30,675 nucleotides of DNA from a virus (IMGVR_UViG_2721755724_000001); one strand, 5' to 3'. Shown: positions 1 to 30,675, numbered from the stretch's first letter. Translations and numbers: made by a program. The notes: generated by a model not told the origin, from the sequence alone.

Positions 1-19
1 CTATTTGATAAATATTAAA

Positions 20-1315
20 TTAATTTTTCATTGCTTCGTTATGGGGCATGGTTGGGGCAAACTCGCTTAACTGTGTATTTAACAAAGCTACCTGTGCATT
101 ATTGTTTTCAGACATCCATTTTCCGTATACCTGAAATACCATTTGCGCATCTGCATGGCCCATCTGGTTTGCTATAAATGCCGGGTTAGCACCAGCTGTC
201 AGCGACCAGCAGGCATAAGTATGTCTCGACTGATATGATTTTCGATGGCGGAGTCCGGCACGTTTTATCGCTGCGTCCCACATCTGCCTTATTGAGTCAA
301 CGGTAAAATGGTCACCATAATTTTTTACTCTCGCTGACACTTCAGGTTGAAAAACAAAGGTGCATTTTTGTTTTTCTGTTCTGCCATACTCTCTGAGGTG
401 AACATCAATGATATGCTCTTTGCTCAGTCTCGTTAATGTCATCTGGCTCCGGAGAGCGTCGATTGCTGGCTTAATAAGATGAATGACCCGATTGGTTCCC
501 GCCTGTGTTTTTGGTACCGTGAAACGGTCTTTTGCTAAATTTCTCCTGATCATCATTGTTCCATTTTTCAGATCTATGTCCTCCCATCCAAGTGCACACA
601 GCTCACCAGGGCGAACGCCAGTATAAACAGAAACACACCATAAATTTTTTGCTTGCTGATTTCTGCACGCATCGATAAGACGGATAAATTCCTCCCGCGA
701 AAGAGGATCCGGAATGGTTCTTGATTCCTTTAATGGCGAGATCCCCTTAAGCGGATTATCTGGCAGGTAACCGTTATCAACACCAAACTGGAACACGGCG
801 TTAAGATTTGTCATGTAATTATTTACAGTTACAGCCGATCGCCCTGGTTGTGTAACAATATAGTTACTTTTGGGGATCTGGTATCCAGTCAGTAGCTCTT
901 TACGAACCTCCAGTAATTTTTCTTTATTAATCGATGAGGCAAGATTTTTTTCACCGATTATGCTCAGGATATTTTTGATGACGGCACGGTATGTGTTGAG
1001 TGATGTTTTGGCGACTTCAGTTTCTTTCAGTGCCAGAAATTTTTCAGCCAGTTCTTTTATGGTTAAATCTTGTCGGGCCTCACCAAATTTTTCCAGATTG
1101 CGTGAGGAGGGAAACTGTTTTGCATAGTCGAAAACACCAGTTTTTATTGCGTAACAAACAGAGGAGCGTAGTTCACCTGCAACGCGCCTGTTTTTTGCTG
1201 TGTCAGGAACCCCCAGATTTTCCCTGACTCTTACGCCTTTATAAACAAACCAGATACGTAATTTCCCTCCATGGTTTTCCACGCCTGTCGGATATTTCAT
1301 TTCAACTTCTCTCAT
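20..1315 (-). CDS. int: Phage tyrosine integrase (site-specific recombinase)
   Basis: 431-aa ORF; C-terminal catalytic region with conserved R...H..R...Y-type motifs (HTYACWSL, GHADAQMVFQVYG); sits at the prophage edge next to an excisionase-like gene. Confidence 0.9.
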   Translation of the reverse strand: MREVEMKYPTGVENHGGKLRIWFVYKGVRVRENLGVPDTAKNRRVAGELRSSVCYAIKTGVFDYAKQFPSSRNLEKFGEARQDLTIKELAEKFLALKETEVAKTSLNTYRAVIKNILSIIGEKNLASSINKEKLLEVRKELLTGYQIPKSNYIVTQPGRSAVTVNNYMTNLNAVFQFGVDNGYLPDNPLKGISPLKESRTIPDPLSREEFIRLIDACRNQQAKNLWCVSVYTGVRPGELCALGWEDIDLKNGTMMIRRNLAKDRFTVPKTQAGTNRVIHLIKPAIDALRSQMTLTRLSKEHIIDVHLREYGRTEKQKCTFVFQPEVSARVKNYGDHFTVDSIRQMWDAAIKRAGLRHRKSYQSRHTYACWSLTAGANPAFIANQMGHADAQMVFQVYGKWMSENNNAQVALLNTQLSEFAPTMPHNEAMKN

Positions 1316-1334
1316 TAGTTAGTGTGGCTTTTAG

Positions 1335-1586
1335 TCAAGTAAGATGACGTCTTGGTCTCGCTGATGCCTGGCGCTCAATCCAGCGATCAATTTCTTCCAG
1401 GTTGTAAAAGCATGGACTGTTATCCCATGGCATACCGTCATGAGCGACATGCTTATATTCCCTTCCTTCCATAAACGATTTTTCCCGGGCCTTTTTTAAC
1501 GTACCTTTTTTTATTCCTTTCAGCGCAATTAACTGCTCTTCGGATACCCATTTGCCGGGAGAGACAATCATGATTACTTCGCTCAT
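1335..1586 (-). CDS. Excisionase-like small protein
   Basis: 83-aa ORF immediately upstream of int on the same strand; size, position and basic C-terminus fit prophage excisionase-like proteins. Start codon uncertain (a downstream Met is possible). Confidence 0.6.
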   Translation of the reverse strand: MSEVIMIVSPGKWVSEEQLIALKGIKKGTLKKAREKSFMEGREYKHVAHDGMPWDNSPCFYNLEEIDRWIERQASARPRRHLT

Positions 1587-1658
1587 CGATTTCTTTATCT
1601 CTTACATCAGACGAGCGCCGGTTGCAGAATACCAGTCACAACCGGCGACAGTTGAACA

Positions 1659-4130
1659 TTAAGAATCAGCCTGACTCGGGATCAGTTTTTGCCAGATAAC
1701 TGAAACGTATTTTGCCTGGTAACGGGCGTCATCAAGTGCATTATGGCGCTCACCTTCGAATGGAATAGCCGTTCTGGCATCGAAGTCTATGGCTTTCCCC
1801 AGCTCAACGATTGTGCGTACATCGCGATCGTTGTAGTAACGCCACGGGCAGGGGATCCCCTGCCGTTCGTATGAACGGCGCAAAATCGTGTTGTCGAAGT
1901 TGGCTCCATTTCCCCAAACCTGAACAAAAAATTCACCGGAGTTTTCGTCGATAAATTCCCGCAATTGTAACAGTGCATCATCTAACGGGATTTCATCGGT
2001 CATAATGGCAGATTGCGCTTCGCGTGATTGCTTAAGCCACCATTTAATGGTGTTCCGATCAATGACTCCGCCAGCAGTTTCCAGATCGATAGTCTTACTA
2101 AATTCCGGTCCCATATCTCCGGTTTGCGGATCGAAAAATATTGCACCTATTGAGATGATCGGGGCATCAGGATTTTTTCCCATGGTTTCAAGGTCGATCA
2201 TTAGATGGTCACACGTCCTGCTGGTGGATGTGATTTCGTGATGACCGTTCACCTTAATTGAGTGATCTGCCGTCTCGCCAGTTTCATTATCGCTATTGTG
2301 ATGCTGATTGCCGCCAGTGTTCTCCTTGTGTGGATGTTCAGCGCCTTCCATTTCCTCCGGATCATCTTCCTGAACTTCAACCTGATATTCTTCATCGAAT
2401 GTTTCTTGATATGTTGCGTCGCCCATCACCGCGCCACAATCAGGGCAGTTGCCGCCGCCGGTCTGACCGCAGGCGGTGCAGACTTTTTCCACTTCCTGTT
2501 GCGCCACTGGTTCAGGCTGTTTCGTTTCTGGCTCGTTTTGTAACGCATTTGTGCTGTTTTGTTCCGCTTTTTGGTAGTTCCGTTCCGATTCATGCTGGTT
2601 CTGGTTCACAGAATCGCGGGTCTGGATCCCCTTAACCCATTTCGGATCATTCGGGTCACTAATCCCTTCAACAAATTCACCACGTGATGCAGCAAGCAAC
2701 TTATCGGCGTCAGGCTGGCTGATATTGGCTGCCTGCATAATTTTGTTTACTTCGTCAGCGGTAACTTTTATCGGCTCTGGTTGTTCTGAATCTTCAGCGG
2801 TATCTACATTTTGCGGTAAGCCCGTGTATGTGCCATTTTTTCGGGCAAAATATTCTTCTTTTGTGATTTCAGTGGCGCCAGCAGCCAGTGCCTTATCCAG
2901 ACCAGAAAGTTTGTTTGCGCGACCGTATTTTTCTCCGTCCTTATCTGCGAAGAGGAAATAGAACGGCCCCTCACGCTCTACAGATGGTTCAGCTTCCGGC
3001 GCGGTTTCATTTTTTGGGATATCAGATACCTCAGTTTCCACTGCATCAGTTTGTGTTTCTGATGACTGGAGAACATCAACAGTGCCCAGGTCTGTTTCTT
3101 CATTCTCAAACACGCCCTTTGTCGTCAGGTATTCGCAGATATATTTGTTCAGTGCTATGGGATCTTTGTGAATGTCGATCGGACGCTCACGGACAAGGCC
3201 AAAAATAGTCTGGCGGTCGTAGCGAAGGGCATCAGGCTGTTTGCGCATTGATGCCGAGATACGCTTCCAGTCTTCGCGGTCGTTGTCGATAACTTCTTTT
3301 TTTGCCCAGCGATGGATGCTGCCGTCAATGTTTCCGGCATCCACATCACCAGGCCAGAGAGCGTAGGCCAGTTCGTCATCCAGTGTTTTCCATGTCTGCT
3401 TGTATTCGCGATGAATGGCAGCAATGACCGGGCTGATTTTTCCTGTTGAATTTTCAGTGTACTGTTGATTGGCTCTGGCGCGGGCGAGATCAACAACAGA
3501 CGTGTATTTTCCGGTTTCCTTGCGTTCACCTTCGCGACGTTTTTTCCAGATGCGCATCTCTGCCTGAATTTCGGGCCATTTAGCACCAGGAATACATTTA
3601 TGCTTAACCCACCCAATGGCGTGCAACTTAAGCTCCGGATACATGGCGTTAACTTCTGGCATTTTCATCAACGCTTCAACGATATGTCCGTCGAATGTTG
3701 CCATGTCTTCCTGCAACAATTCCTGTGCGCTAATAACCATATCAACGGTGATGTTTTCACATGTGTCGAACTTAACCATGACAGCGTTCTGTACTTCAGG
3801 GGCCAGCTTGTCAAAAGTGACGTTCATCGGATCGGATTCAGTCTCAACCGGGACAAAAGAAGCAGACTCCTCATCCCAGCGGTTTTCCTGCATATATTCA
3901 GCATCCCATGAATCGAGGGCAGGGCGGGGTATGCCAGGTTTATCCTCGCAGACAATAAATTTATAAGCGCAGTCCTGAGCAGCCGGATAATGTTCCAGGA
4001 ACTGCCAGTGAAATTTTGCTCGAGCACGGCGTTCGTCGCCAGCTTCAATGGCTGTGGCTACAGCCACAGCGCCTTCTTCCCTTGTTGCCAGTTCGTCAGG
4101 AATAGCGGCGCAAATAAAGACTTTACTCAT
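1659..4130 (-). CDS. Large prophage exonuclease of the size usually annotated exodeoxyribonuclease VIII, with a C-terminal DnaQ-like DEDDh 3'-5' exonuclease domain
   Basis: 823-aa ORF; C-terminal about 190 aa carry Exo I (IDLETMG), Exo II (VWGNGANFDNTIL) and Exo III (HNALDDARYQA) motifs; acidic low-complexity middle region with a CxxC..CxxC cluster. Confidence 0.7.
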   Translation of the reverse strand: MSKVFICAAIPDELATREEGAVAVATAIEAGDERRARAKFHWQFLEHYPAAQDCAYKFIVCEDKPGIPRPALDSWDAEYMQENRWDEESASFVPVETESDPMNVTFDKLAPEVQNAVMVKFDTCENITVDMVISAQELLQEDMATFDGHIVEALMKMPEVNAMYPELKLHAIGWVKHKCIPGAKWPEIQAEMRIWKKRREGERKETGKYTSVVDLARARANQQYTENSTGKISPVIAAIHREYKQTWKTLDDELAYALWPGDVDAGNIDGSIHRWAKKEVIDNDREDWKRISASMRKQPDALRYDRQTIFGLVRERPIDIHKDPIALNKYICEYLTTKGVFENEETDLGTVDVLQSSETQTDAVETEVSDIPKNETAPEAEPSVEREGPFYFLFADKDGEKYGRANKLSGLDKALAAGATEITKEEYFARKNGTYTGLPQNVDTAEDSEQPEPIKVTADEVNKIMQAANISQPDADKLLAASRGEFVEGISDPNDPKWVKGIQTRDSVNQNQHESERNYQKAEQNSTNALQNEPETKQPEPVAQQEVEKVCTACGQTGGGNCPDCGAVMGDATYQETFDEEYQVEVQEDDPEEMEGAEHPHKENTGGNQHHNSDNETGETADHSIKVNGHHEITSTSRTCDHLMIDLETMGKNPDAPIISIGAIFFDPQTGDMGPEFSKTIDLETAGGVIDRNTIKWWLKQSREAQSAIMTDEIPLDDALLQLREFIDENSGEFFVQVWGNGANFDNTILRRSYERQGIPCPWRYYNDRDVRTIVELGKAIDFDARTAIPFEGERHNALDDARYQAKYVSVIWQKLIPSQADS

Positions 4131-4223
4131 TTTGTTTTAACCTCATGACAGATTTAAGGATGAACAAATCCCTGCCATTGCTGGCATATAAGAATGAAAC
4201 CGGATATTTATTACGGAACTGTT

Positions 4224-4415
4224 TTAAAGACCTGCCGGGATTTCGATATTATCCTGGTGAATAACTTTATCGACCGGGTAACAGTTACCGGGAATTTTCT
4301 GTTCGGTTGCTGCAGTCATACACTCCTGCATTGTCCTGTGAACACTGACTGCAATATCAACTGGCTCTCCGGAAACAAGAAAAACTGTCAGAACAAGCGC
4401 AAATGCTGAATTCAT
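4224..4415 (-). CDS. ydfD: YdfD-like small lysis protein
   Basis: 63-aa product from the internal Met (MNSAFALVLTVFLVSGEP...), N-terminal hydrophobic segment; start overlaps the dicB stop as ATGA, as in the Qin dicB operon. Confidence 0.6.
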   Translation of the reverse strand: MNSAFALVLTVFLVSGEPVDIAVSVHRTMQECMTAATEQKIPGNCYPVDKVIHQDNIEIPAGL

Positions 4416-4600
4416 TGTGCACATCCTTTTGGCATCAGACGTAAACGAGCCAGCATTGAAACAATGCATATTTTATTTAATAGCTCCCGTTCTTGTTTTC
4501 TCTTGTTAATGGCATCTTCAGTAAATACAGGGTTACTGATAGTGACACCAATTTCAAAACAACCTTCAGACGTATTAACGTTTGGTAATAACGTTTTCAT
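4412..4600 (-). CDS. dicB: Cell division inhibitor DicB
   Basis: 62-aa product MKTLLPNVNTSEGCFEIGVTISNPVFTEDAINKRKQERELLNKICIVSMLARLRLMPKGCAQ matches DicB as I recall it; GAGGA Shine-Dalgarno 7 nt upstream; DicF lies immediately upstream. Confidence 0.8.
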   Translation of the reverse strand: MKTLLPNVNTSEGCFEIGVTISNPVFTEDAINKRKQERELLNKICIVSMLARLRLMPKGCAQ

Positions 4601-4770
4601 TATCGCGTCCTCAACAATGAATTTTGTGATGCAGTGCCTGGTGCCTCCAGGTGACGTTAACCAGTTAACAATTAACGCCGGATACAGAGAATCCACCCAT
4701 AACACTGTTTTTGGTTTTAACTGTTCCGCGTGCGCTTAGCCGCATTCACCGCATCACAAAATTCACTTTA

Positions 4771-4827
4771 AAAACGGCGGCAGAGCAGTCACGGAGTAAA
4801 ACTGATACCGCCAAACGTCACCAGAAA
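4771..4827 (-). ncRNA. dicF: DicF small RNA (ftsZ-targeting) with intrinsic terminator hairpin
   Basis: Minus-strand sequence UUUCUGGUGACGUUUGGCGGUAUCAGUUUUACUCCGUGACUGCUCUGCCGCC followed by GUUUUU matches DicF as recalled; GGCGG...CCGCC stem plus U-run. Confidence 0.85.
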
Positions 4828-4858
4828 ATTGATAACAGAGGGCGTTGCAGCGGGGTTG

Positions 4859-5089
4859 TCACTTAAGCGTATGGTCAACCTGACAACTCGGTGTCCTCAA
4901 CGGGGAAGGAATAACCCCGCCATACTTACCGCCGCGCCATTTCGCGGGTTGCCACAACCGGAAGCGCACGGTCGAATTAAATTTAACGACACCGTACAGT
5001 GAGACGAACTTCGCCGTGCGCTTTCGTGTTGTGTGCCTGCTTTTAACCACGTCAGGCGAGGTGGTATCCTTCTTATTCCGAATAACCAA
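4859..5089 (-). CDS. Small basic protein in the ydfC position of the dicB operon
   Basis: 76-aa ORF directly upstream of DicF on the same strand; only a TTG start is available; Arg/Lys-rich. Identity as YdfC is positional only. Confidence 0.4.
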   Translation of the reverse strand: MVIRNKKDTTSPDVVKSRHTTRKRTAKFVSLYGVVKFNSTVRFRLWQPAKWRGGKYGGVIPSPLRTPSCQVDHTLK

Positions 5090-5102
5090 GAAGGAAATCT
5101 AT

Positions 5103-5303
5103 ATGACTAAAGAAGAATTTGTCTCTTATATTTTTGATAAAACGGTTGAAATGTATGCCGCTACTTACGGGTCCTGTAATCCTCTGAATAAACCAGAGGG
5201 GAAAGATGATTTCGACAAAATTTACCGCTTCTTGGAGGACCGCTATATCAAAAGGTTAGAGGACGCAGGGATCAAATCCCCAGTGAAGTCACCATTGTCC
5301 TGA
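5103..5303 (+). CDS. Hypothetical small protein (66 aa)
   Basis: ATG preceded by AAGGAAA Shine-Dalgarno at good spacing; the opposite strand over this span contains no ATG, so Qin-type ydfA/ydfB are not encoded here. Confidence 0.4.
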   Translation: MTKEEFVSYIFDKTVEMYAATYGSCNPLNKPEGKDDFDKIYRFLEDRYIKRLEDAGIKSPVKSPLS

Positions 5304-5637: not shown

Positions 5638-5849
5638 CGTCAGCCTCATCAGTCAGTGTTTCTGGCTAACCAGCAACGCGCGCCAGATTCGGTTTTAAAC
5701 GTTTTGCTTTTGGTATATGTCATCGCGGTGAACGTACCGTCCTGGTTGGGGAACACGCCACATACAGGAGGCATCTGGCGGCGAGCTTCTGTATGATCCC
5801 AAGGTTTATGACGAATATCGTAAGACGAAGCGGGCGGGGCGGTTGAACA
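5638..5849. promoter_or_regulatory. Divergent intergenic region, probable immunity/early promoter-operator region
   Basis: About 210 bp between divergently oriented genes; contains the palindrome AAACGTTT and the dicC remnant. No operator repeats confidently identified. Confidence 0.3.
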
Positions 5850-5866
5850 ATGAAAATCACTCCTGA
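5732..5866 (+). pseudogene. dicC: 3' remnant of Cro-like repressor gene dicC
   Basis: Frame encodes ...QEASGGELLYDPKVYDEYRKTKRAGRLNNENHS*, matching the C-terminus of DicC as recalled; the frame is closed by a stop at 5729 with no start codon, so only about 44 codons remain. Confidence 0.45.
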
Positions 5867-6371
5867 ACAGGCTCGTGAGGCTCTGGATGCCTGGATATGT
5901 CGACCAGGAATGACACAGGAGCAGGCGACGATATTAATCACTGAAGCATTCTGGGCTTTGAAAGAGCGCCCGAACATCGATGTTCAGCGTGTCACAGATG
6001 AAGGTGGCGCGGTTGATCAGCGAGCGCTTGGCGTTAATCGAGTGAAGATATTCGAACGCTGGAAGGCTATCGACACTAGGGATAAGCGTGAAAAGTTCAC
6101 GGCGCTAGTGCCTGCAATTATGGAGGCTATCCGGATTAATGATTTCAGGTTGTATCGTGAAATTAGTGACGGAAAAAGCATCACGTACATGATCGCCGGG
6201 TTAAACAAAGAATATGGCGATGTGGTGGAGTCCGGACTGCTTTTTGCTGATCCTGCCGTAGTGGATCGTGAAACTGACGAACTTATAGAAAAAGCAATTG
6301 CTTTCAAACTTGCGTATCGACAGCAATACCAACAAAAAGCTGGATGGAATTATGAGCCTTCTTTTTGCTGA
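5850..6371 (+). CDS. Hypothetical phage early protein (173 aa)
   Basis: ATG-initiated ORF downstream of the cro-like remnant and upstream of the replication initiator; family not recognised. Confidence 0.55.
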   Translation: MKITPEQAREALDAWICRPGMTQEQATILITEAFWALKERPNIDVQRVTDEGGAVDQRALGVNRVKIFERWKAIDTRDKREKFTALVPAIMEAIRINDFRLYREISDGKSITYMIAGLNKEYGDVVESGLLFADPAVVDRETDELIEKAIAFKLAYRQQYQQKAGWNYEPSFC

Positions 6372-7317
6372 ACGCCCACTGGTTATAAACACACAGCTTG
6401 CGATGAAGATTGGCTTAAATGAAGCCATTGTGTTGCAGCAGTTGCATTACTGGTTGAGAGATACCAATTCCGGCATGGAATGTGATGGTGTTCGCTGGAT
6501 TTACAACACAACGGAACAATGGCTGGAACAGTTCCCATTCTGGTCAGAGTCAACGTTAAAGCGCGCGTTTGCAAGTCTGAAAACGCTGGGGCTTTTGCGT
6601 TGTGAAAAGCTCAATAAATCAAAGCGCGATATGACCAATTTCTACACGATCAACTATGGGAACGAGCTTTTAGATGGTGGCAAATTGAACGAATCCATCG
6701 GTTCAAAATGCGCCGCTCCATCAGGTCAAAATGACACGATGGAAGAGGTCAAAATGAAACGCTCCATTGGTTCAAAACGACCCAATGTCATCGGGTCAAA
6801 ATGGCCTGATGATCTTACAGAGAATACAACAGAGATTACTACAGAGAATAAAAACACTTTTCGTCCGGAAGCTTCGCAACCGGACCCGCAGACCGCTGAA
6901 CAGGATTTTTTAATCCGGAACCCCGACGCGGTTGTGTTTAGTGCGAAAAAACGCCAGTGGGGTAGCAGGGAGGATTTGGCGTGTGCGCAGTGGATTTGGG
7001 GGCGGATCGTGAACCTTTACGAACAGGCTGCCAGCGACGATGGAGAGATCATGCGACCAAAAGAGCCTAACTGGACAGCCTGGGCCAATGACGTGCGCAC
7101 AATGCGGATGCTGGATGGCAGAAGCCACAGACAAATTTGCGAAATGTTTGGTCGGGTACAGCGAGATCCATTCTGGGTAAAAAACATCATGAGCCCGTCA
7201 AAACTCCGCGAAAAATGGGACGAACTGGTCATCCGCTTGGGACGTTCACCTGTACAGCGTTGTGTGAATCATATTTCTGAACCGGATACAGAAATTCCGC
7301 CTGGTTTCAGGGGATAA
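6352..7317 (+). CDS. Phage replication initiator / replisome organizer (O-like)
   Basis: N-terminal winged-helix-like region (ERPLVINTQLAMKIGLNEAIVLQQLHYWL...), a central linker encoded by an iteron array, and a C-terminal region resembling DnaT/replication protein C-termini; start taken as the ATG at 6352. Confidence 0.65.
   Translation: MSLLFAERPLVINTQLAMKIGLNEAIVLQQLHYWLRDTNSGMECDGVRWIYNTTEQWLEQFPFWSESTLKRAFASLKTLGLLRCEKLNKSKRDMTNFYTINYGNELLDGGKLNESIGSKCAAPSGQNDTMEEVKMKRSIGSKRPNVIGSKWPDDLTENTTEITTENKNTFRPEASQPDPQTAEQDFLIRNPDAVVFSAKKRQWGSREDLACAQWIWGRIVNLYEQAASDDGEIMRPKEPNWTAWANDVRTMRMLDGRSHRQICEMFGRVQRDPFWVKNIMSPSKLREKWDELVIRLGRSPVQRCVNHISEPDTEIPPGFRG
6695..6805 (+). repeat. Five direct iterons (core GGTCAAAATG-like) at 23-24 bp spacing, followed by an A-rich stretch: probable phage origin inside the initiator gene
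   Basis: TCAAAA cores at 6703, 6726, 6749, 6772 and 6796; A/T-rich ACAGAGAATACAACAGAGATTACTACAGAGAATAAAAACAC follows at 6810-6850. Confidence 0.6.
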
Positions 7318-7644
7318 GTGTTGATTTCAGGTCATGAGGTAATTTTAAGGAGGACTTGTGGCAAAAGTTTTTACACAGGAAGAGCGGGAAAAAATTAAAG
7401 AGCAGGTGGTCGAACTTGTGCGCCAGAGCGGTCGCGAGACATTACGACAGTTGGAAGCTAAAACAGGTGCGACAAGATATCTGATGAGCATTCTTGCCAG
7501 AGAGCTGGTTGCCAGTGGTTATGTATACAACTCCGGCTACGGGTTATTCCCGTCTGAACAGGCACGAAAGGACTGGCAAAATGCCCGCAAAAAACTCTCT
7601 AGGGCGAAGGTGAAGAAACCCGCTGTGGTTGATTGGATTTGCCC

Positions 7645-8550
7645 CTATATTTCCAGACATCTGTTATCACTTAACCCATTACAAGCCCGCTGCCGCAGAT
7701 ATTCCCGTGGCGAGCGATAACCCAGCGCACTATGCGGATGCCATTCGTTATAATGCTCGAACGCCTCTGCAAGGTTCTTTGCTGCCGTTAACCCGTCTGG
7801 TTTGGGCATGATACTGATGTAGTCACGCTTTATCGTTTTCACGAAGCTCTCTGCTATTCCGTTACTCTCCGGACTCCGCACCGCCGTGTTCTTCGGTTCA
7901 AGTCCCAACATCCGGGCGAACTGGCGTGTTTCATTAGCCCGGTAGCATGAACCATTATCCGTCAGCCACTCCACTGGAGACGACGGAAGATCGTTGCCGA
8001 AGCGGCGTTCCACCGCTCCCAGCATGACGTCCTGTACTGTTTCACTGTTGAAGCCGCCGGTAGTGACCGCCCAGTGCAGTGCCTCACGATCACAGCAGTC
8101 CAGCGCGAACGTGACACGCAGTCTCTCTCCGTTATCACAGCAGAACTCGAACCCGTCAGAGCACCATCGCTGATTGCTTTCTTTCACGGCCACTCTGCCT
8201 GTATGTGCCCGTTTCGATGGCGGTACAGCAGGTTTTCGCTCAAGCAACAGCGCATTCTGGCGCATGATCCGGTAAACACGTTTGGCATTGATCGCAGGCA
8301 TACCATCAAGTTCTGCCTGTCTGCGAAGCAGCGCCCATACCCGACGATAACCATACGTGGGCAGCTCTCCGATAACATGGTGTATACGGAGAAGCACATC
8401 CGTATCATCAGTGTGACGACTGCGGCGGCCATCCATCCAGTCATCGGTTCGTCTGAGAATGACGTGCAACTGCGCACGCGACACCCGGAGACAACGGCTG
8501 ACTAAGCTTACTCCCCATCCCCGGGCAATAAGGGCGCGTGCGCTATCCAC
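7645..8550 (-). CDS. insD: IS2 transposase OrfB (InsD), full length
   Basis: 301-aa ORF ending ...[37 protein letters not shown]; normally expressed as an InsCD frameshift fusion. Confidence 0.9.
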
Positions 8551-8873
8551 TTTTTTGCCCGTCCATATTCAACGGCTTCTTTGAGGAGTTCATTTTCCAT
8601 CGTTTTCTTGCCGAGCAGGCGCTGGAGTTCTTTAATCTGCTTCATGGCGGCAGCAAGTTCAGAGGCAGGAACAACCTGTTCTCCGGCGGCGACAGCAGTA
8701 AGACTTCCTTCCTGGTATTGCTTACGCCAGAGAAATAACTGGCTGGCTGCTACACCATGTTGCCGGGCAACGAGGGAGACCGTCATCCCCGGTTCAAAGC
8801 TCTGCTGAACAATTGCGATCTTTTCCTGTGTGGTACGCCGTCTGCGTTTCTCCGGCCCTAAGACATCAATCAT
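8508..8873 (-). CDS. insC: IS2 transposase OrfA (InsC)
   Basis: 121-aa product [26 protein letters not shown]... matches IS2 InsC. Confidence 0.9.
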
Positions 8874-9273
8874 CTGTTCTCCAATGACTAGTCTAAAAAC
8901 TAGTATTAAGACTATCACTTATTTAAGTGATATTGGTTGTCTGGAGATTCAGGGGGCCAGTCTATTGATCCGGACCTTATCTGGTCACTACCTGATGGAG
9001 AAATACGTCGCTACGACAGTCGTCTAAACATAATCTGTCGCGAGTGCCGGAAGAGCGAAGTTATGCAGCGCATACTGGCATTTTATCAGTGAAATTTTCG
9101 TTATTTATAGACGTAACTAGATTAAAGAGCATTAGTTCAGATGTGAATTGACATTTTCACGGCACAGGATTGAGCTAGCGTGGTTGTCTGCTTTGCGTCA
9201 AAAGCAGATATTACCAGATTTAGACATCTATTCCCGATAGCCCTGCTCTGATGCCACACTCTGTGCTATTTTC

Positions 9274-10860: not shown

Positions 10861-10877
10861 TTTTGTGGAGTAAGTTG

Positions 10878-16268: not shown

Positions 16269-17296
<1,028 letters not shown>

Positions 17297-21588: not shown

Positions 21589-23968
21589 GGTGTGGACCTA
21601 TAACCGCAGTAATGTGGTGATGCCGGATGATGGCGCGCCGTTCCGCTACAGCTTCAGCGCCCTGAAGGACCGCCATAATGCCGTTGAGGTGAACTGGATT
21701 GACCCGAACAACGGCTGGGAGACGGCGACAGAGCTTGTTGAAGATACGCAGGCCATTGCCCGTTACGGTCGTAATGTCACGAAGATGGATGCCTTTGGCT
21801 GTACCAGCCGGGGGCAGGCACACCGCGCCGGGCTGTGGCTGATTAAAACGGAACTGCTGGAGACGCAGACCGTGGATTTCAGCGTGGGTGCTGAAGGGCT
21901 TCGCCATGTACCGGGCGATGTCATTGAAATCTGCGATGATGACTATGCCGGTATCAGCACCGGCGGGCGCGTGCTGGCGGTAAACAGCCAGACCCGGACG
22001 CTGACGCTCGACCGTGAAATCACGCTGCCATCTTCCGGCACCACGCTGATAAGCCTGGTTGACGGGCAGGGGAGTCCGGTCAGCGTGGAGGTTCAGTCCG
22101 TCACCGACGGCGTGAAGGTAAAAGTGAGCCGTGTTCCTGACGGTGTTGCTGAATACAGCGTATGGGGGCTGAAGCTGCCGACGCTGCGCCAGCGACTGTT
22201 CCGCTGCGTGAGTATCCGTGAGAACGACGACGGCACGTATGCCATCACCGCCGTGCAGCATGTGCCGGAAAAAGAGGCCATCGTGGATAACGGGGCGCAC
22301 TTTGACGGCGACCAGAGCGGCACGGTGAATGGTGTCACGCCGCCAGCGGTGCAGCACCTGACTGCCGAAGTCACCGCAGACAGCGGGGAGTATCAGGTAC
22401 TGGCCCGCTGGGACACGCCGAAGGTGGTGAAGGGGGTGAGCTTTATGCTTCGCCTGACCGTGGCAGCGGACGACGGCAGTGAGCGGCTGGTCAGCACGGC
22501 CCGGACGACAGAAACCACATACCGCTTCACGCAACTGGCGCTGGGACGGTACACGCTGACAGTCCGGGCGGTAAATGCGTGGGGACAGCAGGGCGATCCG
22601 GCGTCGGTATCGTTCCGGATTGCCGCACCGGTAGCACCGTCGCGGATTGAGCTGACGCCGGGCTATTTTCAGATAACTGCCACGCCGCATCTTGCGGTTT
22701 ATGATCCGACGGTACAGTTTGAGTTCTGGTTCTCGGAAACGCGGATTACCGATATCAGGCAGGTTGAAACCACAGCCCGCTACCTTGGTGCGGGGCTGTA
22801 CTGGATAGCCGCCAGTATCAATATCAAACCGGGCCATGATTATTACTTTTATATCCGCAGTGTGAACACCGTTGGCAAATCGGCATTCGTGGAGGCTGTT
22901 GGTCAGCCGAGTGATGACGCATCCGGCTATCTGGATTTTTTCAAAGGCGAGATAGGGAAAACCCATCTGGCTCAGGAGCTGTGGACGCAGATTGATAACG
23001 GTCAGCTTGCGCCTGACCTGGCTGAAATCAGGACATCCATTACGGATGTCAGCAATGAAATCACACAGACCGTCAATAAGAAACTGGAAGACCAGAGTGC
23101 AGCGATTCAGCAGATACAGAAGGTTCAGGTTGATACAAATAATAACCTGAACAGCATGTGGGCCGTGAAACTGCAGCAGATGCAGGACGGACGCCTTTAT
23201 ATTGCGGGTATCGGTGCCGGTATTGAGAATACGCCAGCAGGAATGCAGAGTCAGGTGCTGCTGGCGGCAGACAGGATTGCGATGATTAATCCTGCGAATG
23301 GCAACACAAAGCCGATGTTTGTTGGTCAGGGTGATCAGATATTCATGAACGACGTGTTCCTGAAACGCCTGACGGCTCCCACCATTACCAGCGGCGGTAA
23401 TCCTCCTGCATTTTCCCTTACACCGGACGGGCGACTGACGGCGAAAAATGCGGATATCAGTGGCAGTGTGAATGCGAACGCCGGGACGCTCAACAATGTC
23501 ACGATAAATGAAAACTGTCGGGTTCTGGGAAAACTGTCTGCGAACCAGATTGAAGGCGATCTCGTTAAAACAGTGGGCAAAGCTTTCCCCCGGGACTCCC
23601 GTGCACCGGAGCGGTGGCCATCAGGGACCATTACCGTCAGGGTTTATGACGATCAGCCGTTTGACCGGCAGATTGTTATTCCCACGGTGGCGTTTCGTGA
23701 CGCTAAACATGAGCGGGAGAATAACGATATTTATTCGTCATGCCGCCTGATAGTGAAGAAAAACGGTGCTGAAATTTATAACCGTACCGCGCTGGATAAT
23801 ACGCTGGTTTATACAGGTGTTATTGATATGCCTGCCGGTCACGGTCACATGACGCTGGAGTTTTCGGTATCAGCGTGGCTGGTAAATGACTGGTATCCCA
23901 CAGCCAGTATCAGTGATTTGCTGGTTGTGGTGATGAAGAAATCCACAGCAGGTATCAGTATCAGCTGA
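21551..23968 (+). pseudogene. Host specificity protein J (central tail fibre), C-terminal roughly two-thirds only
   Basis: Near-identity over hundreds of residues to lambda J from ...[29 protein letters not shown]... to the C-terminus; the apparent N-terminus of the 823-aa ORF is out-of-frame terminase-region sequence. Left boundary approximate (about 30 bp). Confidence 0.8.
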
Positions 23969-23987
23969 ATTTTATAACCCATATGCG

Positions 23988-24015
23988 GGCGCCATTTCTG
24001 GCGCCTTTTTTATTG
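23988..24015 (+). terminator. Rho-independent terminator after J
   Basis: GGCGCCA-TTTC-TGGCGCC hairpin followed by a T-run. Confidence 0.6.
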
Positions 24016-24035
24016 CAGAAAAGCGAGAGGTAATT

Positions 24036-24635
24036 ATGCGTAAAGTTTGTGCAGCCATTTTGTCCGCAGCCATCTGTCTGGCCGTATCCGGTGCGCCTGC
24101 ATGGGCGTCTGAGCAGCAGGCCACACTGAGCGCAGGGTATCTTCATGCCTCGACGAACGTTCCCGGTAGTGATGATCTGAACGGGATTAACGTGAAATAC
24201 CGTTATGAGTTTACGGACACGCTGGGGCTGATTACGTCATTCAGTTATGCCAACGCTGAAGATGAGCAAAAAACGCATTACAGCGATACCCGCTGGCATG
24301 AGGATTCCGTGCGTAACCGCTGGTTCAGCGTGATGGCGGGGCAGTCTGTGCGCGTGAATGAATGGTTCAGCGCGTATGCGATGGCGGGTGTGGCTTACAG
24401 CCGTGTGTCGACTTTCTCCGGGGATTATCTCCGCGTAACTGACAACAAGGGGAAAACGCACGATGTGCTGACCGGAAGTGATGACGGTCGCCACAGCAAC
24501 ACGTCTCTGGCGTGGGGGGCTGGCGTGCAGTTTAACCCGACCGAATCCGTGGCCATTGATATTGCTTATGAAGGTTCCGGCAGTGGTGACTGGCGCACTG
24601 ACGGTTTCATCGTGGGTGTCGGTTATAAATTCTGA
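24036..24635 (+). CDS. lom: Lom-family outer-membrane protein (Ail/Lom/PagC beta-barrel)
   Basis: 199-aa ORF with signal peptide and an Ail/Lom-type beta-barrel pattern ending ...GFIVGVGYKF; position after J as in lambda. Confidence 0.9.
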   Translation: MRKVCAAILSAAICLAVSGAPAWASEQQATLSAGYLHASTNVPGSDDLNGINVKYRYEFTDTLGLITSFSYANAEDEQKTHYSDTRWHEDSVRNRWFSVMAGQSVRVNEWFSAYAMAGVAYSRVSTFSGDYLRVTDNKGKTHDVLTGSDDGRHSNTSLAWGAGVQFNPTESVAIDIAYEGSGSGDWRTDGFIVGVGYKF

Positions 24636-24662
24636 TTAGCCAGGTAACACAGTGTTATGACA

Positions 24663-24689
24663 GCCCGCCGGTTCAGGCGGGTTTTTTTG
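24663..24689 (+). terminator. Rho-independent terminator after lom
   Basis: CCCGCC-GGTTCA-GGCGGG hairpin followed by a 7-T run. Confidence 0.6.
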
Positions 24690-25029
24690 TGGGGGGAATA
24701 TGGCAGTACGGATTTCAGGTGTACTGAAAGATGGCGCAGGTAAGCCGATACAAAACTGCACCATTCAGCTAAAGGCCAGGCGCAACAGCACCACGGTGGT
24801 GGTGAACACAGTGGCCTCAGAAAACCCGGATGAAGCCGGGCGTTACAGCATGGACGTTGAGTACGGTCAGTACAGCGTTATTCTGTTGGTGGAAGGCTTC
24901 CCGCCATCGCATGCCGGGACCATCACCGTGTATGAAGACTCACAACCGGGTACGCTGAATGATTTTCTCGGTGCCATGACGGAGGATGATGTCCGTCCGG
25001 AGGCACTGCGCCGCTTTGAACTGATGGTG

Positions 25030-25700
25030 GAAGAGGTGGCGCGTAACGCGTCCGCAGTGGCACAGAACACGGCAGCCGCGAAGAAGTCAGCCAGTGATGC
25101 CCGCACATCAGCCCGTGAGGCGGCAACCCATGCGACTGATGCTGCGGACTCCGCACGCGCAGCCAGCACGTCAGCCGGACAGGCCGCGTCGTCGGCTCAG
25201 TCAGCGTCTTCCAGCGCAGGAACGGCATCAACAAAGGCTACTGAAGCATCAAAAAGTGCTGCCGCTGCAGAGTCTTCAAAAAGCGCGGCAGCCACCAGTG
25301 CCGGTGCAGCGAAAACGTCAGAAACGAATGCCGCAGCATCACAAAAATCTGCGGCCACTTCTGCATCCACCGCGACCACGAAAGCGTCAGAAGCTGCCAC
25401 CTCAGCCCGGGATGCGTCGGCTTCAAAAGTGGCGGCAAAATCATCAGAAACGAGCGCAGCCTCGAGCGCCGGCAGTGCAGCTTCCTCGGCAACGGCGGCA
25501 GGAAATTCCGCGAAGGCCGCAAAAACGTCTGAGATGAATGCGGATAACAGCGCACAGGCGGCAGCAGACTCACAAACTGCATCGGCAAATTCCGCGACAG
25601 CAGCCAAAAAATCAGAAACCAACGCGAAAAATAGTGAGTCAGCAGCAAAGGTCAGCGAAACCAACGCTAAAGCGTCAGAGAACAAGGCGAAAGAATATCT
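25030..25700 (+). repeat. Ala/Ser/Thr/Lys-rich low-complexity repeat region within stf
   Basis: About 200 codons of short degenerate SA..A..S/KSA repeats, as in lambda Stf; generates long spurious ORFs on other frames and strands. Confidence 0.7.
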
Positions 25701-27612
25701 CGACAAGGTCGGGGGACTCGTCAGCCCGATGACGCAATACGATTGGCCCGTTGTTACTGGTAATGAGTCTTTTTACATAAAGATCGCGAAACTTTCCGAT
25801 CCCGGAAGCAACAATTGCCATGTAACGCTAATGGTTACTAACGGCGGTGACTACGGCTCCCCTTACGGAAACATTGACTTTATCGAGATCTCGGCGCGCG
25901 GTCTGCCTTCTTCGCTTACTGCTGATAATGTATCTCGTTACCTGAGTATACGCCGTTTAGGGCCAACCGGGCTAATCAATAGCATGCAAATGCGTTACGG
26001 CCTGGTTAAAGATGATGGCTTTATTGAGGTTTGGGCCTTCCAGCGTGCATTTATCAACGGCGCAAAGGTTGCGGTACTGGCGCAGACGGCACGCACGGAA
26101 TTATACATTCCAGACGGATTTGTTAAGCAAACCGCCGCGCCTTCTGGATATGTTGAAAGCCCCGTTGTAAGGATTTACGACCAGTTAAACAAGCCGACTA
26201 AAGCAGATTTGGGTCTTTCTAATGCTATGCTTACAGGCGCTTTCGGTCTTGGCGGTAGCGGGATATCAACAAACGGCAAGATGAGCGATGTAGAGATCTT
26301 AAAAGCTCTGCGTGACAAAGGTGGTCATTTCTGGCGCGGTGATAAGCCGACCGGAAGCACGGCGACCATTTATAGCCACGGTTCTGGTATATTCTCGCGG
26401 TGCGGCGATACGTGGTCAGCGATCAATATCGACTACTCAACCGCGAAGATTAAGATCTATGCCGGCAACGATGCCCGGCTTAACAACGGGACTTTTAGCA
26501 TCAATGAGCTATACGGCTCGGCAAACAAGCCGTCGAAATCGGATGTTGGACTTGGCAACGTAACGAACGATGCGCAGGTAAAAAAAACCGGCGATACAAT
26601 GACCTGTGACTTGACAATCAAAAAAGGTACACCGTCAGTCTTCCTGCGGGCAGACAGTGGAGTCACCGCTTTGCGGTTTTATACTGGCGATAACACAGAG
26701 CGCGGCATAATCTATGCTGGTCCTAACACTGATTCGCTTGGCGAAGTTCGCATCAGGGCAAAGACAGCAGGGGGGACATCAGGAGGGGATCTTGTTGTTC
26801 GTCACGACGGGAGGGTTGAAGTCCGTGATCTCACAGTAGCGTATAAAATTAAAAGCAGAACGATTGAGATTGCAAATACCGACACTGACTCATCGGCAAC
26901 TACGCTCAGCATCTATGGAGTACAGCACACGCCGTTGGTTTTAACGCGTTCTGGTTCTTCTGAAAATGTGTCCATTGGGTTTAAGTTAGACAACATGAAC
27001 CCAAAGTATCTTGGAATTGATACTAATGGGGATCTGGCTTTTGGTGAGAGTCCTGATCAGAAACAAAACAGCAAATTGATCACGCAAGCGAAACTCGACA
27101 AGGGATTAACGATTGGTGGTCAACTGGCTTTCAAAGGTACGACAGCGTTTTCAGCCGTTGCTACGTTCAGTGCCGGGATAGCAGGAGCCATCGAGCCGGA
27201 AAACATTGACGGCCAGACGGTTAATCTTAACAACCTGACCATCATCAAGTCAGATGCCGGGGCAGTTAAATACTATATTTGTCCATCCTCTGCAGGTGGT
27301 GCAAATATTACCAATAAGCCTGACGGCATAGCCGGTAACTTTTTGCTCCGTGTAGAGTCGACTCGTAAGGTTAGGGATTCAGATTATGCGAACATGCAAA
27401 CGCTGATTAACAGCGACACAAAACGTATATACGTTCGCTTTGTTGTTAATGGAAACTGGACAGCGTGGAGTCAGGTTGTTGTTTCCGGATGGAATCAGGA
27501 TATAACTGTCAGGTCGTTAACTAGACTGGCCCCCTGAATCTCCAGACAACCAATATCACTTAAATAAGTGATAGTCTTAATACTAGTTTTTAGACTAGTC
27601 ATTGGAGAACAG

Positions 27613-27978
27613 ATGATTGATGTCTTAGGGCCGGAGAAACGCAGACGGCGTACCACACAGGAAAAGATCGCAATTGTTCAGCAGAGCTTTGAACCGGGGA
27701 TGACGGTCTCCCTCGTTGCCCGGCAACATGGTGTAGCAGCCAGCCAGTTATTTCTCTGGCGTAAGCAATACCAGGAAGGAAGTCTTACTGCTGTCGCCGC
27801 CGGAGAACAGGTTGTTCCTGCCTCTGAACTTGCTGCCGCCATGAAGCAGATTAAAGAACTCCAGCGCCTGCTCGGCAAGAAAACGATGGAAAATGAACTC
27901 CTCAAAGAAGCCGTTGAATATGGACGGGCAAAAAAGTGGATAGCGCACGCGCCCTTATTGCCCGGGGATGGGGAGTAA
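27613..27978 (+). CDS. insC: IS2 transposase OrfA (InsC), copy 2
   Basis: Identical 121-aa product to copy 1. Confidence 0.9.
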
Positions 27979-28757
27979 GCTTAGTCAGCCGTTGTCTCCG
28001 GGTGTCGCGTGCGCAGTTGCACGTCATTCTCAGACGAACCGATGACTGGATGGATGGCCGCCGCAGTCGTCACACTGATGATACGGATGTGCTTCTCCGT
28101 ATACACCATGTTATCGGAGAGCTGCCCACGTATGGTTATCGTCGGGTATGGGCGCTGCTTCGCAGACAGGCAGAACTTGATGGTATGCCTGCGATCAATG
28201 CCAAACGTGTTTACCGGATCATGCGCCAGAATGCGCTGTTGCTTGAGCGAAAACCTGCTGTACCGCCATCGAAACGGGCACATACAGGCAGAGTGGCCGT
28301 GAAAGAAAGCAATCAGCGATGGTGCTCTGACGGGTTCGAGTTCTGCTGTGATAACGGAGAGAGACTGCGTGTCACGTTCGCGCTGGACTGCTGTGATCGT
28401 GAGGCACTGCACTGGGCGGTCACTACCGGCGGCTTCAACAGTGAAACAGTACAGGACGTCATGCTGGGAGCGGTGGAACGCCGCTTCGGCAACGATCTTC
28501 CGTCGTCTCCAGTGGAGTGGCTGACGGATAATGGTTCATGCTACCGGGCTAATGAAACACGCCAGTTCGCCCGGATGTTGGGACTTGAACCGAAGAACAC
28601 GGCGGTGCGGAGTCCGGAGAGTAACGGAATAGCAGAGAGCTTCGTGAAAACGATAAAGCGTGACTACATCAGTATCATGCCCAAACCAGACGGGTTAACG
28701 GCAGCAAAGAACCTTGCAGAGGCGTTCGAGCATTATAACGAATGGCAATCCGCATAG
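27936..28757 (+). pseudogene. insD: IS2 insD, copy 2, frameshifted near the 3' end
   Basis: Copy 2 reads GAATGGCAATCCGCA where copy 1 reads GAATGGCATCCGCA (one extra A), giving ...EHYNEWQSA* (273 aa) in place of the 301-aa product. Confidence 0.8.
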
Positions 28758-29813
28758 TGCGCTGGGTTATCGCTCGCCACGGGAATATCTGCGGCAGCGG
28801 GCTTGTAATGGGTTAAGTGATAACAGATGTCTGGAAATATAGGGGCAAATCCATTAACCACATCTAGTCCGGTAAAATCTGGCGGAGGGCGAATTGATGT
28901 CCTTGGAAGCACGTCAGACTATAGCAAAATGGATTGCTTTGTACGTGGGTTTGATAGCACCGGTAATTCTCTCGCGTGGGCGTTGGGTTCATCAGCCGGC
29001 GTAAGTAAGATGCTGTCGCTAAAAAATTTCTTTAGCGGAGCTGAGATACTGTTAAATGGTAATGACGGCACGGTTCAACTCAAAACAGGTGCTGTTAACG
29101 GGGCTACAGCGCAGGCGCTCACTATCAACAGGAATGAGGTTAACTCAACTGTTGATTTAACCCTTACAAAACAATCAGGGACTGGCAATCGTTTTGTTTT
29201 ACAGAACTCAGGTAATGCAGAACTACCGTTTTCTGTCAGGGTGTGGGGTTCCAGTACTCGACAAAACGTTTTTGAGGTTGGCACGTCTGCTGCGTATCTG
29301 TTTTATGCGCAAAAAACGTCAGCAGGCCAGTTGTTTGATGTAAATGGCGCTATTAATTGCACAACGCTGAATCAGTCATCAGACCGCGACCTTAAAGACG
29401 ATATTCTCGTTATCAGCGACGCGACGAAAGCAATCCGTAAAATGAACGGATACACCTACACGCTCAGGGAAAACGGGATGCCTTATGCTGGCGTTATTGC
29501 ACAGGAAGTAATGGAGGCGATACCAGAAGCTGTGGGATCGTTTACTCATTATGGTGAAGAGTTGCAAGGTCCGACCGTTGACGGCAACGAGCTACGCGAA
29601 GAAACGCGCTATCTTAATGTTGACTACGCCGCCGTGACGGGCTTACTTGTTCAGTTCGCCCGTGAAACAGATGATCGCGTTACCGCGCTGGAAGAGGAAA
29701 ACACAACGCTACGTCAAAATCTGGCAACAGCAGACACCCGGATCAGCACTCTGGAAAATCAGGTAAGCGAACTGGTTGCACTTGTCCGGCAGTTAACAGG
29801 AAGCGAACATTGA

Positions 29814-29987
29814 TATCCTTCAAGCTCTGAAGGAGGCTGTTCCCGGTACGTTCAGACTGTTGTTGAGCTGGAAATCGCAACGGAGGAAGAAACCTTGTTG
29901 CTGGAAGCCTGGAAAAAGTATCGGGTGTTGCTGAACCGTGTTGATACGTCAACTGCACAGGATATTGAATGGCCAGCACTGCCGTAG
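29814..29987 (+). pseudogene. tfa: 3' remnant of tail fibre assembly gene tfa
   Basis: 57 codons without a start, ending ...[40 protein letters not shown], matching the conserved C-terminus of TfaE/TfaQ-type proteins; in frame with and directly after the stf stop. Confidence 0.65.
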
Positions 29988-30084
29988 GGTAAAACATATA
30001 AATTCTATAATTAGATGTATCTTTCCATTTACGGCAAGGAAGGGGGCTTGGAAGACGTAAAGCATCTCACACCGAGATTATTTT

Positions 30085-30675
30085 TTATATGTCAGGTGTC
30101 TGAAGTTTTGCTTTGGCTCTTAAAATGGTTTGCCGCGAGGTTTTGAATTCCCGGGCAATGGCACTTATACTTACACCTGACTTAATTCGTTCGAATACCA
30201 CCTGTTTCTGTTCTTCATTTAACACAGGTGGTCGACCAAAACGTTTCCCTGCGCCGCGGGCTCTTACTATCCCGGAATGAGTGCGTTCAAGTAAAAGGTC
30301 TCGTTCAAATTCAGCGACTGCTGAAATTACGTGCATCATCATTTTTCCTGTTGGACTGGTCAGGTCAATGCCCCCCAATGCTAAGCAATGCACTCTGATA
30401 CCTGTTTCGGTCAGTTGTTCCACTGTTTTCCTGATATCCATTGCATTACAACCAAGGCGATCCAGTTTTGTCACAATCAATTGATCACCACATTTCAGGC
30501 GAGCAAGCAACCGGTTAAAACCAGGACGCTCACTGGTTGCTGCTGAGCCGCTAATGTGTTCTTCGATTATTTGCTGAGGTTTGATTTTAAAACCTGCACT
30601 TTCGATTTCCCGGCGTTGATTTTCGGTGGTCTGATCCAGCGTTGATATCCGACAGTAAGCAAAAATTCGAGACAT
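30085..30675 (-). CDS. pin: Pin-family DNA invertase (serine recombinase), PinQ/PinR-like
   Basis: 196-aa [38 protein letters not shown]... with catalytic-Ser N-terminal domain and C-terminal helix-turn-helix; start codon is the last three bases of the window. Confidence 0.9.

Follow-up and report, generated by a model that had tools for sequence, protein, structure and literature searches.

The 30,675-nucleotide viral stretch IMGVR_UViG_2721755724_000001 (hereafter the window, meaning the whole of the DNA analyzed) raises the question of which phage element it holds and which functions of that element have survived. We called genes from the listing of open reading frames (ORFs) and from Pfam, PHROG, NCBIfam, and Rfam scans of the window. 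The element is a defective lambdoid prophage, in which the lambdoid module order is kept and the particle-building genes are gone. The window very probably (probability of approximately 0.9) represents almost the entire Qin-locus cryptic prophage of an Escherichia coli or Shigella-like chromosome, bearing four insertion sequences (ISs) and no morphogenesis module. This estimate covers jointly the Qin-locus identity, the descent, the deletions, the order of the IS insertions, and the inferred silencing.

Identity and Chromosomal Site of the Element

Comparison with the Qin prophage of E. coli K-12 by blastn revealed nine collinear blocks that agree in order and orientation and sum to 8.35 kb, with 82–100% identity. 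These blocks covered int, ydfE-ydfD-dicB-DicF, ydfA, dicC/ydfX, ydfU, essQ/ydfR, rrrQ to ynfR, ynfN-gnsB, and the end of tfaQ to pinQ. The gene order of the window was int-xis-exo-ydfD-dicB-DicF ... YdaT-O-DUF977 ... ydfU-Q ... essQ-ydfR-rrrQ-rzpQ/rzoQ-cspI-ynfQ-ynfN-gnsB-terminase remnants-J-lom-stf-tfa remnant-pinQ. Of the hallmarks of Qin, the window has lysis genes of the phage-21 type, then cspI-ynfQ-ynfN-gnsB, and pinQ at the distal end, together with the dicBF operon (ydfA ... DicF-dicB-ydfD) adjoining exo/int, in which ydfA is truncated at its 5′ end. The DicA/DicC immunity pair controlling dicBp was absent. Because both flanks of the corresponding deletion are homologous to K-12, this absence reflects loss within the lineage and not another ancestry.

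A megablast search of 5,426 complete E. coli genomes found copies of the element at 99–100% identity. In EC190486, NT1F25, and GCA_974490235, a near-identical element lay between rspB and ydfK-ynfT-truncated ydfJ, which is the Qin site of K-12. The window spans int to pinQ, falling approximately 20 bp short at the int end and approximately 1.3 kb (ydfK and ynfT) short beyond pinQ. An 11-bp direct repeat, TTATGGATTTC, was found at both element boundaries in EC190486 (8303–8313 and 39559–39569 of the compared stretch), with one copy between rspB and int and the other exactly at the start of the truncated ydfJ; approximately 0.07 such 11-bp matches would be expected by chance in the regions compared. 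This repeat is a candidate att core for Qin-type integrases. These data agree with the original prediction, made from the sequence alone, that the element is a Qin/Kim-type defective lambdoid prophage with the gene order of Qin. That prediction could have been overturned had the missing morphogenesis genes been present in the flanking DNA; the flanks in the near-identical genomes (rspB on one side and ydfK-ynfT-ydfJ′ on the other) contained no phage morphogenesis genes.

One intact relative was HannyBb (PP925841; related phage mEp460), a 45.3-kb phage isolated on E. coli with the same module order as the window. The element would descend from a HannyBb/mEp460-like lambdoid phage that carried an IdasGreatGrand/1H12-type Q-cargo module and a lambda-like J-lom-stf end. 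Four deletion lesions would have disabled this ancestor, affecting immunity (837 bp), queH-hokD-rem (1.7 kb), morphogenesis (0.9 + 14.6 kb), and tfa. The result is a Qin-family cryptic prophage of the ordinary kind, of which dozens of genomes already provide near-identical copies, sequenced and annotated by machine. The window contained no tRNA genes, a search of the window for the lambda cosN sequence gave no match, so that no cos site was located, and a PADLOC search for anti-phage defense systems among ten window proteins gave no hits.

Deletion of the Immunity Region and Its Predicted Consequences

The immunity region carries the scar of an 837-bp deletion (5760–5765, no strand assigned) with a short TAC microhomology. 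Comparison with strain 3150 and HannyBb mapped the deletion to the base, and the absent DNA corresponds to 4307–5143 of strain 3150 and 29894–30730 of HannyBb. The deletion removed nine ydfA codons, the ydfA-dicA intergenic region, the whole 135-aa DicA-like repressor gene, the dicA-dicC control region, and 41 dicC codons. On one side of the scar, the DUF1391 gene resembling ydfA (5649–5774, minus strand) was recognized as 5′-truncated by alignment with strain 3150; its first nine codons are gone, and three new codons are supplied by the deletion junction. On the other side, only the C-terminal 34 codons of the cro-like dicC remain (5762–5866, plus strand), and RefSeq annotates this remnant as a pseudogene in relatives. 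The junction was present in 13 of the 5,426 complete genomes. No tblastn match to dicA, rem, hokD, relBE, or quuQ was found in the window. The expectation of a retained immunity module with intact regulatory genes consequently failed, given that the deletions took away the repressor gene, the cro-like gene for the most part, the promoter regions of both early operons, and rem.

The consequences can be predicted from K-12 genetics. In K-12, dicBp lies downstream of dicA and upstream of ydfA, and dicBp and dicCp are the analogues of PL and PR, respectively; no other promoter for DicF or dicB was found (PMC10448788). The 837-bp deletion would have eliminated the regions carrying dicCp and dicBp, the equivalents of PR and PL. 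Both early operons, namely DicF-dicB-ydfD-exo-xis-int and YdaT-O...ydfU-Q, would then be promoterless, and Q would therefore not be made. The late transcript would stop either at the hairpin just after Q (11354–11377) or at the strong hairpin before the holin gene (15054–15075). With Q absent and the phage-21-type lysis cassette behind its terminator, the intact toxic genes would remain silent, and the element would be locked and harmless. Self-contained cargo genes, namely cspI, blc, the gene for an AraC-like regulator, lom, gnsB, and pinQ, could still be expressed on their own. From the sequence together with K-12 genetics, we infer that the early and late operons are transcriptionally silent.

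The same deletion could be viewed differently, with the dicBF operon rewired instead of silenced by a new promoter at the scar or in the upstream IS2 copy (IS2a), such that its expression would no longer depend on DicA and could serve the host, for example in phage exclusion. The perfect conservation of dicB, DicF, and ydfD despite loss of the repressor would fit such rewiring, as would the protective effect of DicB against some phages described in one report (10.1101/708461). This conservation may, however, only reflect a recent deletion, in keeping with the presence of the junction in only 13 of 5,426 genomes. Moreover, a consensus scan, which is weak evidence, found no promoter-like site on the minus strand between 4000 and 6400, and thus none upstream of dicBF. 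In K-12, removal of dicA derepresses dicBp and is toxic in cells that carry dicBF, high-level induction of dicBp is inferred to be toxic when dicBF is present, and constitutive dicBF expression is toxic (PMC10448788). We consider rewiring quite improbable. A broader proposal, that the 837-bp deletion was a selected "disarming" step in which toxic genes were kept intact without their repressor, or else that dicBF was rewired to a DicA-independent signal, is only slightly less doubtful. If it were true, at least 13 natural strains bearing the scar would form a ready-made series for prophage domestication, with strain-specific IS hits and a further 2.9-kb J-lom deletion as the later stages.

Loss of the Morphogenesis Module

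In the late region, remnants of the small terminase gene terS (21032–21202, plus strand; amino acids 1–57 of 179) and an internal fragment of the large terminase gene terL (21190–21534, plus strand; amino acids 165–279 of 699) are followed by the gene for tail tip protein J without its first 345 residues (21524–23968, plus strand). The successive joins connect terS codon 57 to terL codons 165–279 and the latter to J codon 346, and the equivalent HannyBb segments that were lost measure 880 bp and 14,622 bp. When 18 HannyBb and 20 lambda late proteins (morphogenesis proteins and lambda Lom) were queried, only the terS, terL, and J fragments and lom matched. The remaining 15 HannyBb and 18 lambda morphogenesis proteins had no match in the window, and portal, capsid, and tail-shaft genes are absent. 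This result upholds the earlier view that the portal, capsid, and most tail genes are missing and that no particles can be formed.

Downstream of J are lom (24036–24635, plus strand), which encodes an intact Ail/Lom outer-membrane protein (Pfam Ail_Lom, E = 6e-126, full length); the side tail fiber gene stf (24700–29813, plus strand), which is split by an IS2 and encodes 1258 aa without it; and the last 45 codons of a tail fiber assembly gene, tfa (29850–29986, plus strand). The J-lom-stf end is lambda-like, with J DNA 94% identical over 1.46 kb, and lom is the only whole gene among J, lom, stf, and tfa. The suggestion that J, lom, and stf are retained here and lacking in K-12 Qin was correct in part: J and lom are extra, but J has lost its start, an IS2 interrupts stf, and K-12 has an stfQ remnant. 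The window ends with the intact serine invertase gene pinQ (30085–30675, minus strand; Pfam Resolvase and HTH_7; 98.5% amino acid identity to K-12 PinQ). pinQ is convergent on the fiber genes, as in HannyBb, and the region from 29.3 to 30.1 kb contained no convincing pair of inverted repeats, the best being 24 nt at 71%. The arrangement of a Pin/Gin-type invertible switch, in which inverted crossover sites bound alternative fiber C-termini beside the invertase, was not found, and the invertase appears to be an orphan.

A non-inducible element might still move as a satellite if a helper lambdoid phage excised and packaged it via the intact int and xis and the retained cos-proximal DNA. In keeping with this scenario, int and xis are undamaged, as is the DNA upstream of terS, with 99% identity to HannyBb. 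However, int and xis are at the end of the promoterless leftward operon, and profile scans of the window proteins found no helper-exploiting genes. At approximately 32 kb, including 4.7 kb of IS DNA, the element is also too short for cos packaging of the lambda type, which requires some 38 kb or more. Satellite mobility is accordingly very improbable, and an immobile cryptic prophage is the preferred explanation.

Insertion Sequences

As had been anticipated, the window contains exactly four ISs, each with its own perfect target-site duplication and together accounting for 4,690 bp (15% of the window). IS2 is expected to be approximately 1331 bp long with imperfect terminal inverted repeats, a 5-bp duplication, and insC/insD; IS1 to be 768 bp long with a 9-bp duplication and insA/insB′; and IS3 to be 1258 bp long with a 3-bp duplication and orfA/orfB. 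All copies could be assigned to these families. IS2a (7634–8964, minus strand; 1331 bp; duplication TTGAT) is inserted in the DUF977 gene and has intact transposase frames, with one substitution relative to K-12 IS2A. The second IS2 copy, IS2b (27522–28853, plus strand; 1332 bp; 5-bp duplication TTAAC), is inserted in stf and has an extra A at position 1226, causing a +1 frameshift that cuts InsD to 273 aa. The two copies thus have one or two changes each relative to IS2A. IS3 (18228–19485, minus strand; 1258 bp; 3-bp duplication AAT) interrupts ynfN after codon 3 and shows no internal difference from K-12 IS3A. IS1 (13331–14099, plus strand; 769 bp; 9-bp duplication TGCACGCAG) is intergenic; its InsA is intact, insB is frameshifted by a 1-bp insertion, and the copy has 26 differences from K-12 IS1A, clustered at 345–523.

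Removal in silico of each IS with one copy of the duplication restored the interrupted genes: a 132-aa DUF977 ORF matching strain 3150, a 51-aa ORF matching K-12 YnfN upon IS3 removal, and a 1258-aa stf upon IS2b removal, of which an uninterrupted 1257-aa allele exists in NT1F25. IS1 was absent at position 13331 in every complete E. coli genome searched, its junction was not found in species-representative genomes or viral contigs, and no record of the frameshifted InsD and InsB products was found. Two of the four ISs (IS1 and IS2b) carry single-base insertions that break the transposase; these are either genuine decay or errors of assembly. Among promoter-like matches in the region scanned, the best (13317–13344, minus strand; 10/12 positions with an extended −10 TG) is a hybrid whose −35 element lies in the left end of IS1 and whose −10 element lies in the flanking DNA, directed antisense towards ybgA.

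The duplications also bear on whether the window could be a chimera, produced by misassembly or by IS-mediated rearrangement of several prophages. Two identical IS2 copies in inverted orientation, 18.5 kb apart, and the mosaic similarity of different modules to different phages would be compatible with such an origin. Each IS is nevertheless bounded by its own matching duplication, which argues against recombination between ISs and excludes an inversion between the two IS2 copies; the same backbone and order recur in many independent complete genomes, and mosaicism is normal for lambdoid phages. A chimeric origin is therefore extremely improbable, and we regard the window as one contiguous Qin-locus prophage.

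Suggested Order of Decay among Strains

The distribution of lesions among strains suggested the order in which they arose. NT1F25 shares all deletions with the window, retains intact stf and DUF977, and carries IS1, IS2, and IS3 at three other sites, namely inside ybgA, in the rzpQ-cspI interval, and past gnsB. Both IS2 sites of the window are also occupied in EC190486, which lacks IS1 and has its IS3 in the interval from ydfU to Q. Based on this sharing pattern across NT1F25, EC190486, and the complete genomes, the deletions would be older, the two IS2 insertions (in DUF977 and stf) intermediate, and the IS1 and IS3 insertions the latest. In several relatives whose Stf::IS2 product is identical, another 2,944 bp (window 21492–24435) are missing. 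These include the remainder of the terL fragment, J, and the greater part of lom, so that the terL fragment is joined to the last 56 lom codons. In light of these relatives, the window represents an intermediate stage of decay.

HannyBb (intact), strain 3150 (intact immunity), NT1F25 and EC190486 (the same deletions with other IS sites), and GCA_974490235 (one extra deletion) form a dated decay series. The positions of IS1, IS2, and IS3 on this one dead prophage backbone vary from strain to strain. The comparison shows dead prophage DNA collecting IS elements, for which it apparently serves as a neutral landing pad.

Several points weigh against the interpretation of the window as a silenced Qin-locus prophage. 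The window holds no flanks of its own, and the near-identical genomes serve as a proxy for its chromosomal site. Misassembly could account for the single-base frameshifts in IS1 and IS2b. Silence of the operons is a prediction; some expression could still arise from a weak or cryptic promoter or by read-through from IS2a, which points at the dicBF operon from 1.9 kb away.

Early Genes of Both Arms

In order of coordinates, the leftward arm begins with a full-length tyrosine integrase of 426 aa (20–1300, minus strand; Pfam Arm-DNA-bind_2 and Phage_integrase), which shares 99.3% amino acid identity with the HannyBb integrase over its full length; K-12 intQ matches only residues 31–426. It is followed on the same strand by an 83-aa excisionase (1335–1586; Pfam DUF1233, E = 1.6e-31), which is 100% identical to the HannyBb protein and absent from K-12 Qin, and an 823-aa exonuclease (1659–4130; phrog_2082, full length). 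The exonuclease has a RecE-like middle region, which matched NCBIfam exodeoxyribonuclease VIII at positions 271–602 below the cut-off, and a C-terminal Rv2179c-like 3′–5′ exoribonuclease domain. K-12 ydfE corresponds to its N-terminal 256 residues with 100% identity. No RecT or Bet partner gene was present near the exonuclease gene.

Continuing on the minus strand, the arm contains the lysis protein gene ydfD (4224–4415; DUF1482; 98.4% amino acid identity to K-12), the cell-division inhibitor gene dicB (4412–4600; Pfam DicB, E = 1e-39; 100% amino acid identity to K-12 DicB), and the DicF small RNA gene (4775–4826; Rfam RF00039, 72.5 bits against a gathering score of 48, full model). In place of K-12 ydfB/ydfC is a 121-aa phage ORF (5272–5637, minus strand; phrog_33007 and phrog_34441, both full length), in a region with no DNA match to K-12; a 66-aa ORF (5103–5303) lies on the opposite strand. 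Positions 24111–29181 of HannyBb, a phage isolated in the free-living state, correspond to window 1–5071 at 99.5% DNA identity, including dicB, DicF, and ydfD. A 2016 paper (PMC5069750) reported that about 2,000 phage genomes had yielded neither DicB nor DicF and built an argument on this absence; newer phage genomes overturn that premise.

The rightward early region, located on the plus strand, encodes a 173-aa YdaT-family protein (5850–6371; Pfam YdaT_toxin; 100% identical to the HannyBb protein), a 321-aa O-like replication initiator (6352–7317; phrog_391, E = 1.7e-92; 97.5% amino acid identity to HannyBb), and the DUF977 gene split by IS2a (7358–9092; Pfam DUF977 profile positions 1–82 of 134). 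The epoxyqueuosine reductase gene queH (9295–9732; Pfam QueH profile positions 1–126 of 175) lacks its 3′ end and runs into the junction at 9720–9732 of a 1.7-kb deletion (HannyBb 33470–35188), to which hokD and the antirepressor gene rem were also lost. Beyond this junction are ydfU (9811–10860; DUF968, HNH-like; 98.9% amino acid identity to HannyBb and 91% to K-12) and the gene for a 125-aa antiterminator Q of family PF06530 (10878–11255; Pfam E = 8e-51, full length). This Q is not homologous to K-12 quuQ, and K-12 ydfT had no tblastn match in the window. A terminator-like hairpin with a T run just after Q (11354–11377, plus strand), detected by consensus scan only, is a candidate tR′. Two genes of the window are related to modified nucleobases: queH, which is truncated here and full length in HannyBb, and the gene for a YbgA-like protein with a 2-thiouracil desulfurase domain.

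Cargo, Lysis, and Cold-Shock Genes

The cargo consists of a Blc-type outer-membrane lipocalin gene (11411–11935, minus strand; NCBIfam Blc, 312.6 bits against a cutoff of 267), the ybgA-like gene (12128–13087, plus strand), whose product combines a 2-thiouracil desulfurase (TudS) domain with DUF1722, and the gene for a 237-aa AraC-family regulator (14272–14985, plus strand; Pfam HTH_18) in an island of 34% G+C. The best sub-threshold family matches of the AraC-like regulator were YdeO and GadX (112 bits against a cut-off of 348). Downstream of its gene, approximately 100 bp upstream of the holin gene, is a strong terminator-like hairpin followed by ten T residues (15054–15075), past which late transcription would need antitermination.

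The lysis cassette starts with essQ (15176–15391, plus strand), encoding a 71-aa phage-21-type class II holin (Pfam Phage_holin_2_1, E = 9e-34), followed by a long YdfR/DUF1327 variant of 183 aa (15396–15947, plus strand; phrog_2091, full length 1–183) and an 86-aa phage ORF (15895–16155, minus strand; phrog_2572, full length). A 565-bp insertion between ydfR and rrrQ was considered and rejected, since the long YdfR and the reverse ORF of 86 aa each match a known phage family over the full length. Next are the endolysin gene rrrQ (16269–16802, plus strand; Pfam Phage_lysozyme) and the spanin gene rzpQ (16799–17296, plus strand; Pfam DUF2514), within which rzoQ, an intact lipoprotein ORF, is embedded in the +1 frame at 16992–17246. 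Inspection of the endolysin sequence revealed a hydrophobic N-terminal segment resembling a signal-anchor-release (SAR) sequence and the residues E35/D44/T50. We take these residues and the MKSM dual start of essQ to be the R and S motifs of phage 21, respectively.

Further downstream on the plus strand are cspI with a cspA-type thermoregulatory leader (17502–17899, coding sequence 17660–17872; Rfam RF01766, 109 bits; Pfam CSD), the YmcF-like ynfQ (17883–18071), ynfN split by IS3 after codon 3 (18218–19634), and gnsB (19807–19980; Pfam GnsAB_toxin; 100% identical to HannyBb). Overall, int, xis, exo, ydfD, dicB, YdaT, O, ydfU, the holin, endolysin, and spanin genes, cspI, ynfQ, gnsB, and pinQ were full length relative to HannyBb with 89–100% amino acid identity, and Q, Blc, the YbgA-like protein, the AraC-like regulator, and Lom were full length relative to their family profiles. 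The original prediction that the regulatory, lysis, and cargo genes are intact therefore stood for the lysis cassette, Q, and the cargo, and fell for the immunity and regulatory region, the truncated queH, and the IS-disrupted DUF977 and ynfN. It was also right that the cargo differs from that of K-12, with Q (PF06530), Blc, the TudS-DUF1722 YbgA-like protein, and the AraC-like regulator instead of quuQ/cspB/cspF.

Comparison with Known Systems

The Q-blc-ybgA-like cassette is shared with the natural lambdoid coliphages IdasGreatGrand, Lambda_2E9, and 1H12 at 92–94% DNA identity, and in these phages a related AraC-like gene (77–86% amino acid identity) follows the cassette upstream of the holin gene. 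Unlike the window, they are complete phages whose cassette contains no IS1. The Q-blc-ybgA-AraC cassette, found also in free lambdoid phages, is ordinary phage cargo, and its genes are ordinary prophage morons. Other AraC-like proteins are likewise encoded by prophages, including AppY of DLP12 and PatE, PsrA, and PsrB of O157:H7, and that of the window is a small, AT-rich cargo gene of the AraC/XylS type. It showed no tie to PatE, Psr, or AppY beyond general family resemblance, no direct sequence comparison having been made.

The lysis cassette resembles that of phage 21 (pinholin S21, SAR endolysin R21, and Rz/Rz1) in its PF04971 holin family, MKSM start, and embedded spanins. It differs in having the DUF1327 gene and the 86-aa reverse ORF between holin and endolysin.

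The Qin prophage of K-12 MG1655 (b1545–b1579) has the same site and a collinear backbone. The window differs in having the full int, xis, the 823-aa exonuclease gene, YdaT, O, the J fragment, lom, and a long stf, and in lacking dicA, rem, hokD, relBE, flxA, cspB/cspF, ydfO/ynfO, and nohA. It also has a non-homologous Q, the blc/ybgA/araC cargo, and a different set of ISs. The proper label for the element is a Qin-family cryptic prophage, non-inducible and unable to form particles, and the finding has little bearing other than on correct annotation.

HannyBb is 99.5% identical to the window across the int-xis-exo-ydfD-dicB-DicF arm and 92–99% identical, in the same order, across YdaT-O-DUF977, ydfU, the lysis-csp-gnsB-terS arm (rrrQ to terS), and pin. 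In contrast to the window, it has a repressor, a full cro, rem, hokD, a K-12-type Q (quuQ), cspB/cspF, ydfK, and the complete set of packaging, head, and tail genes (15.5 kb), with no lom and no IS. Because HannyBb carries rem, hokD, quuQ, cspB, cspF, and ydfK of the K-12 type, both K-12 Qin and the element of the window can be regarded as decayed phages of the HannyBb type.

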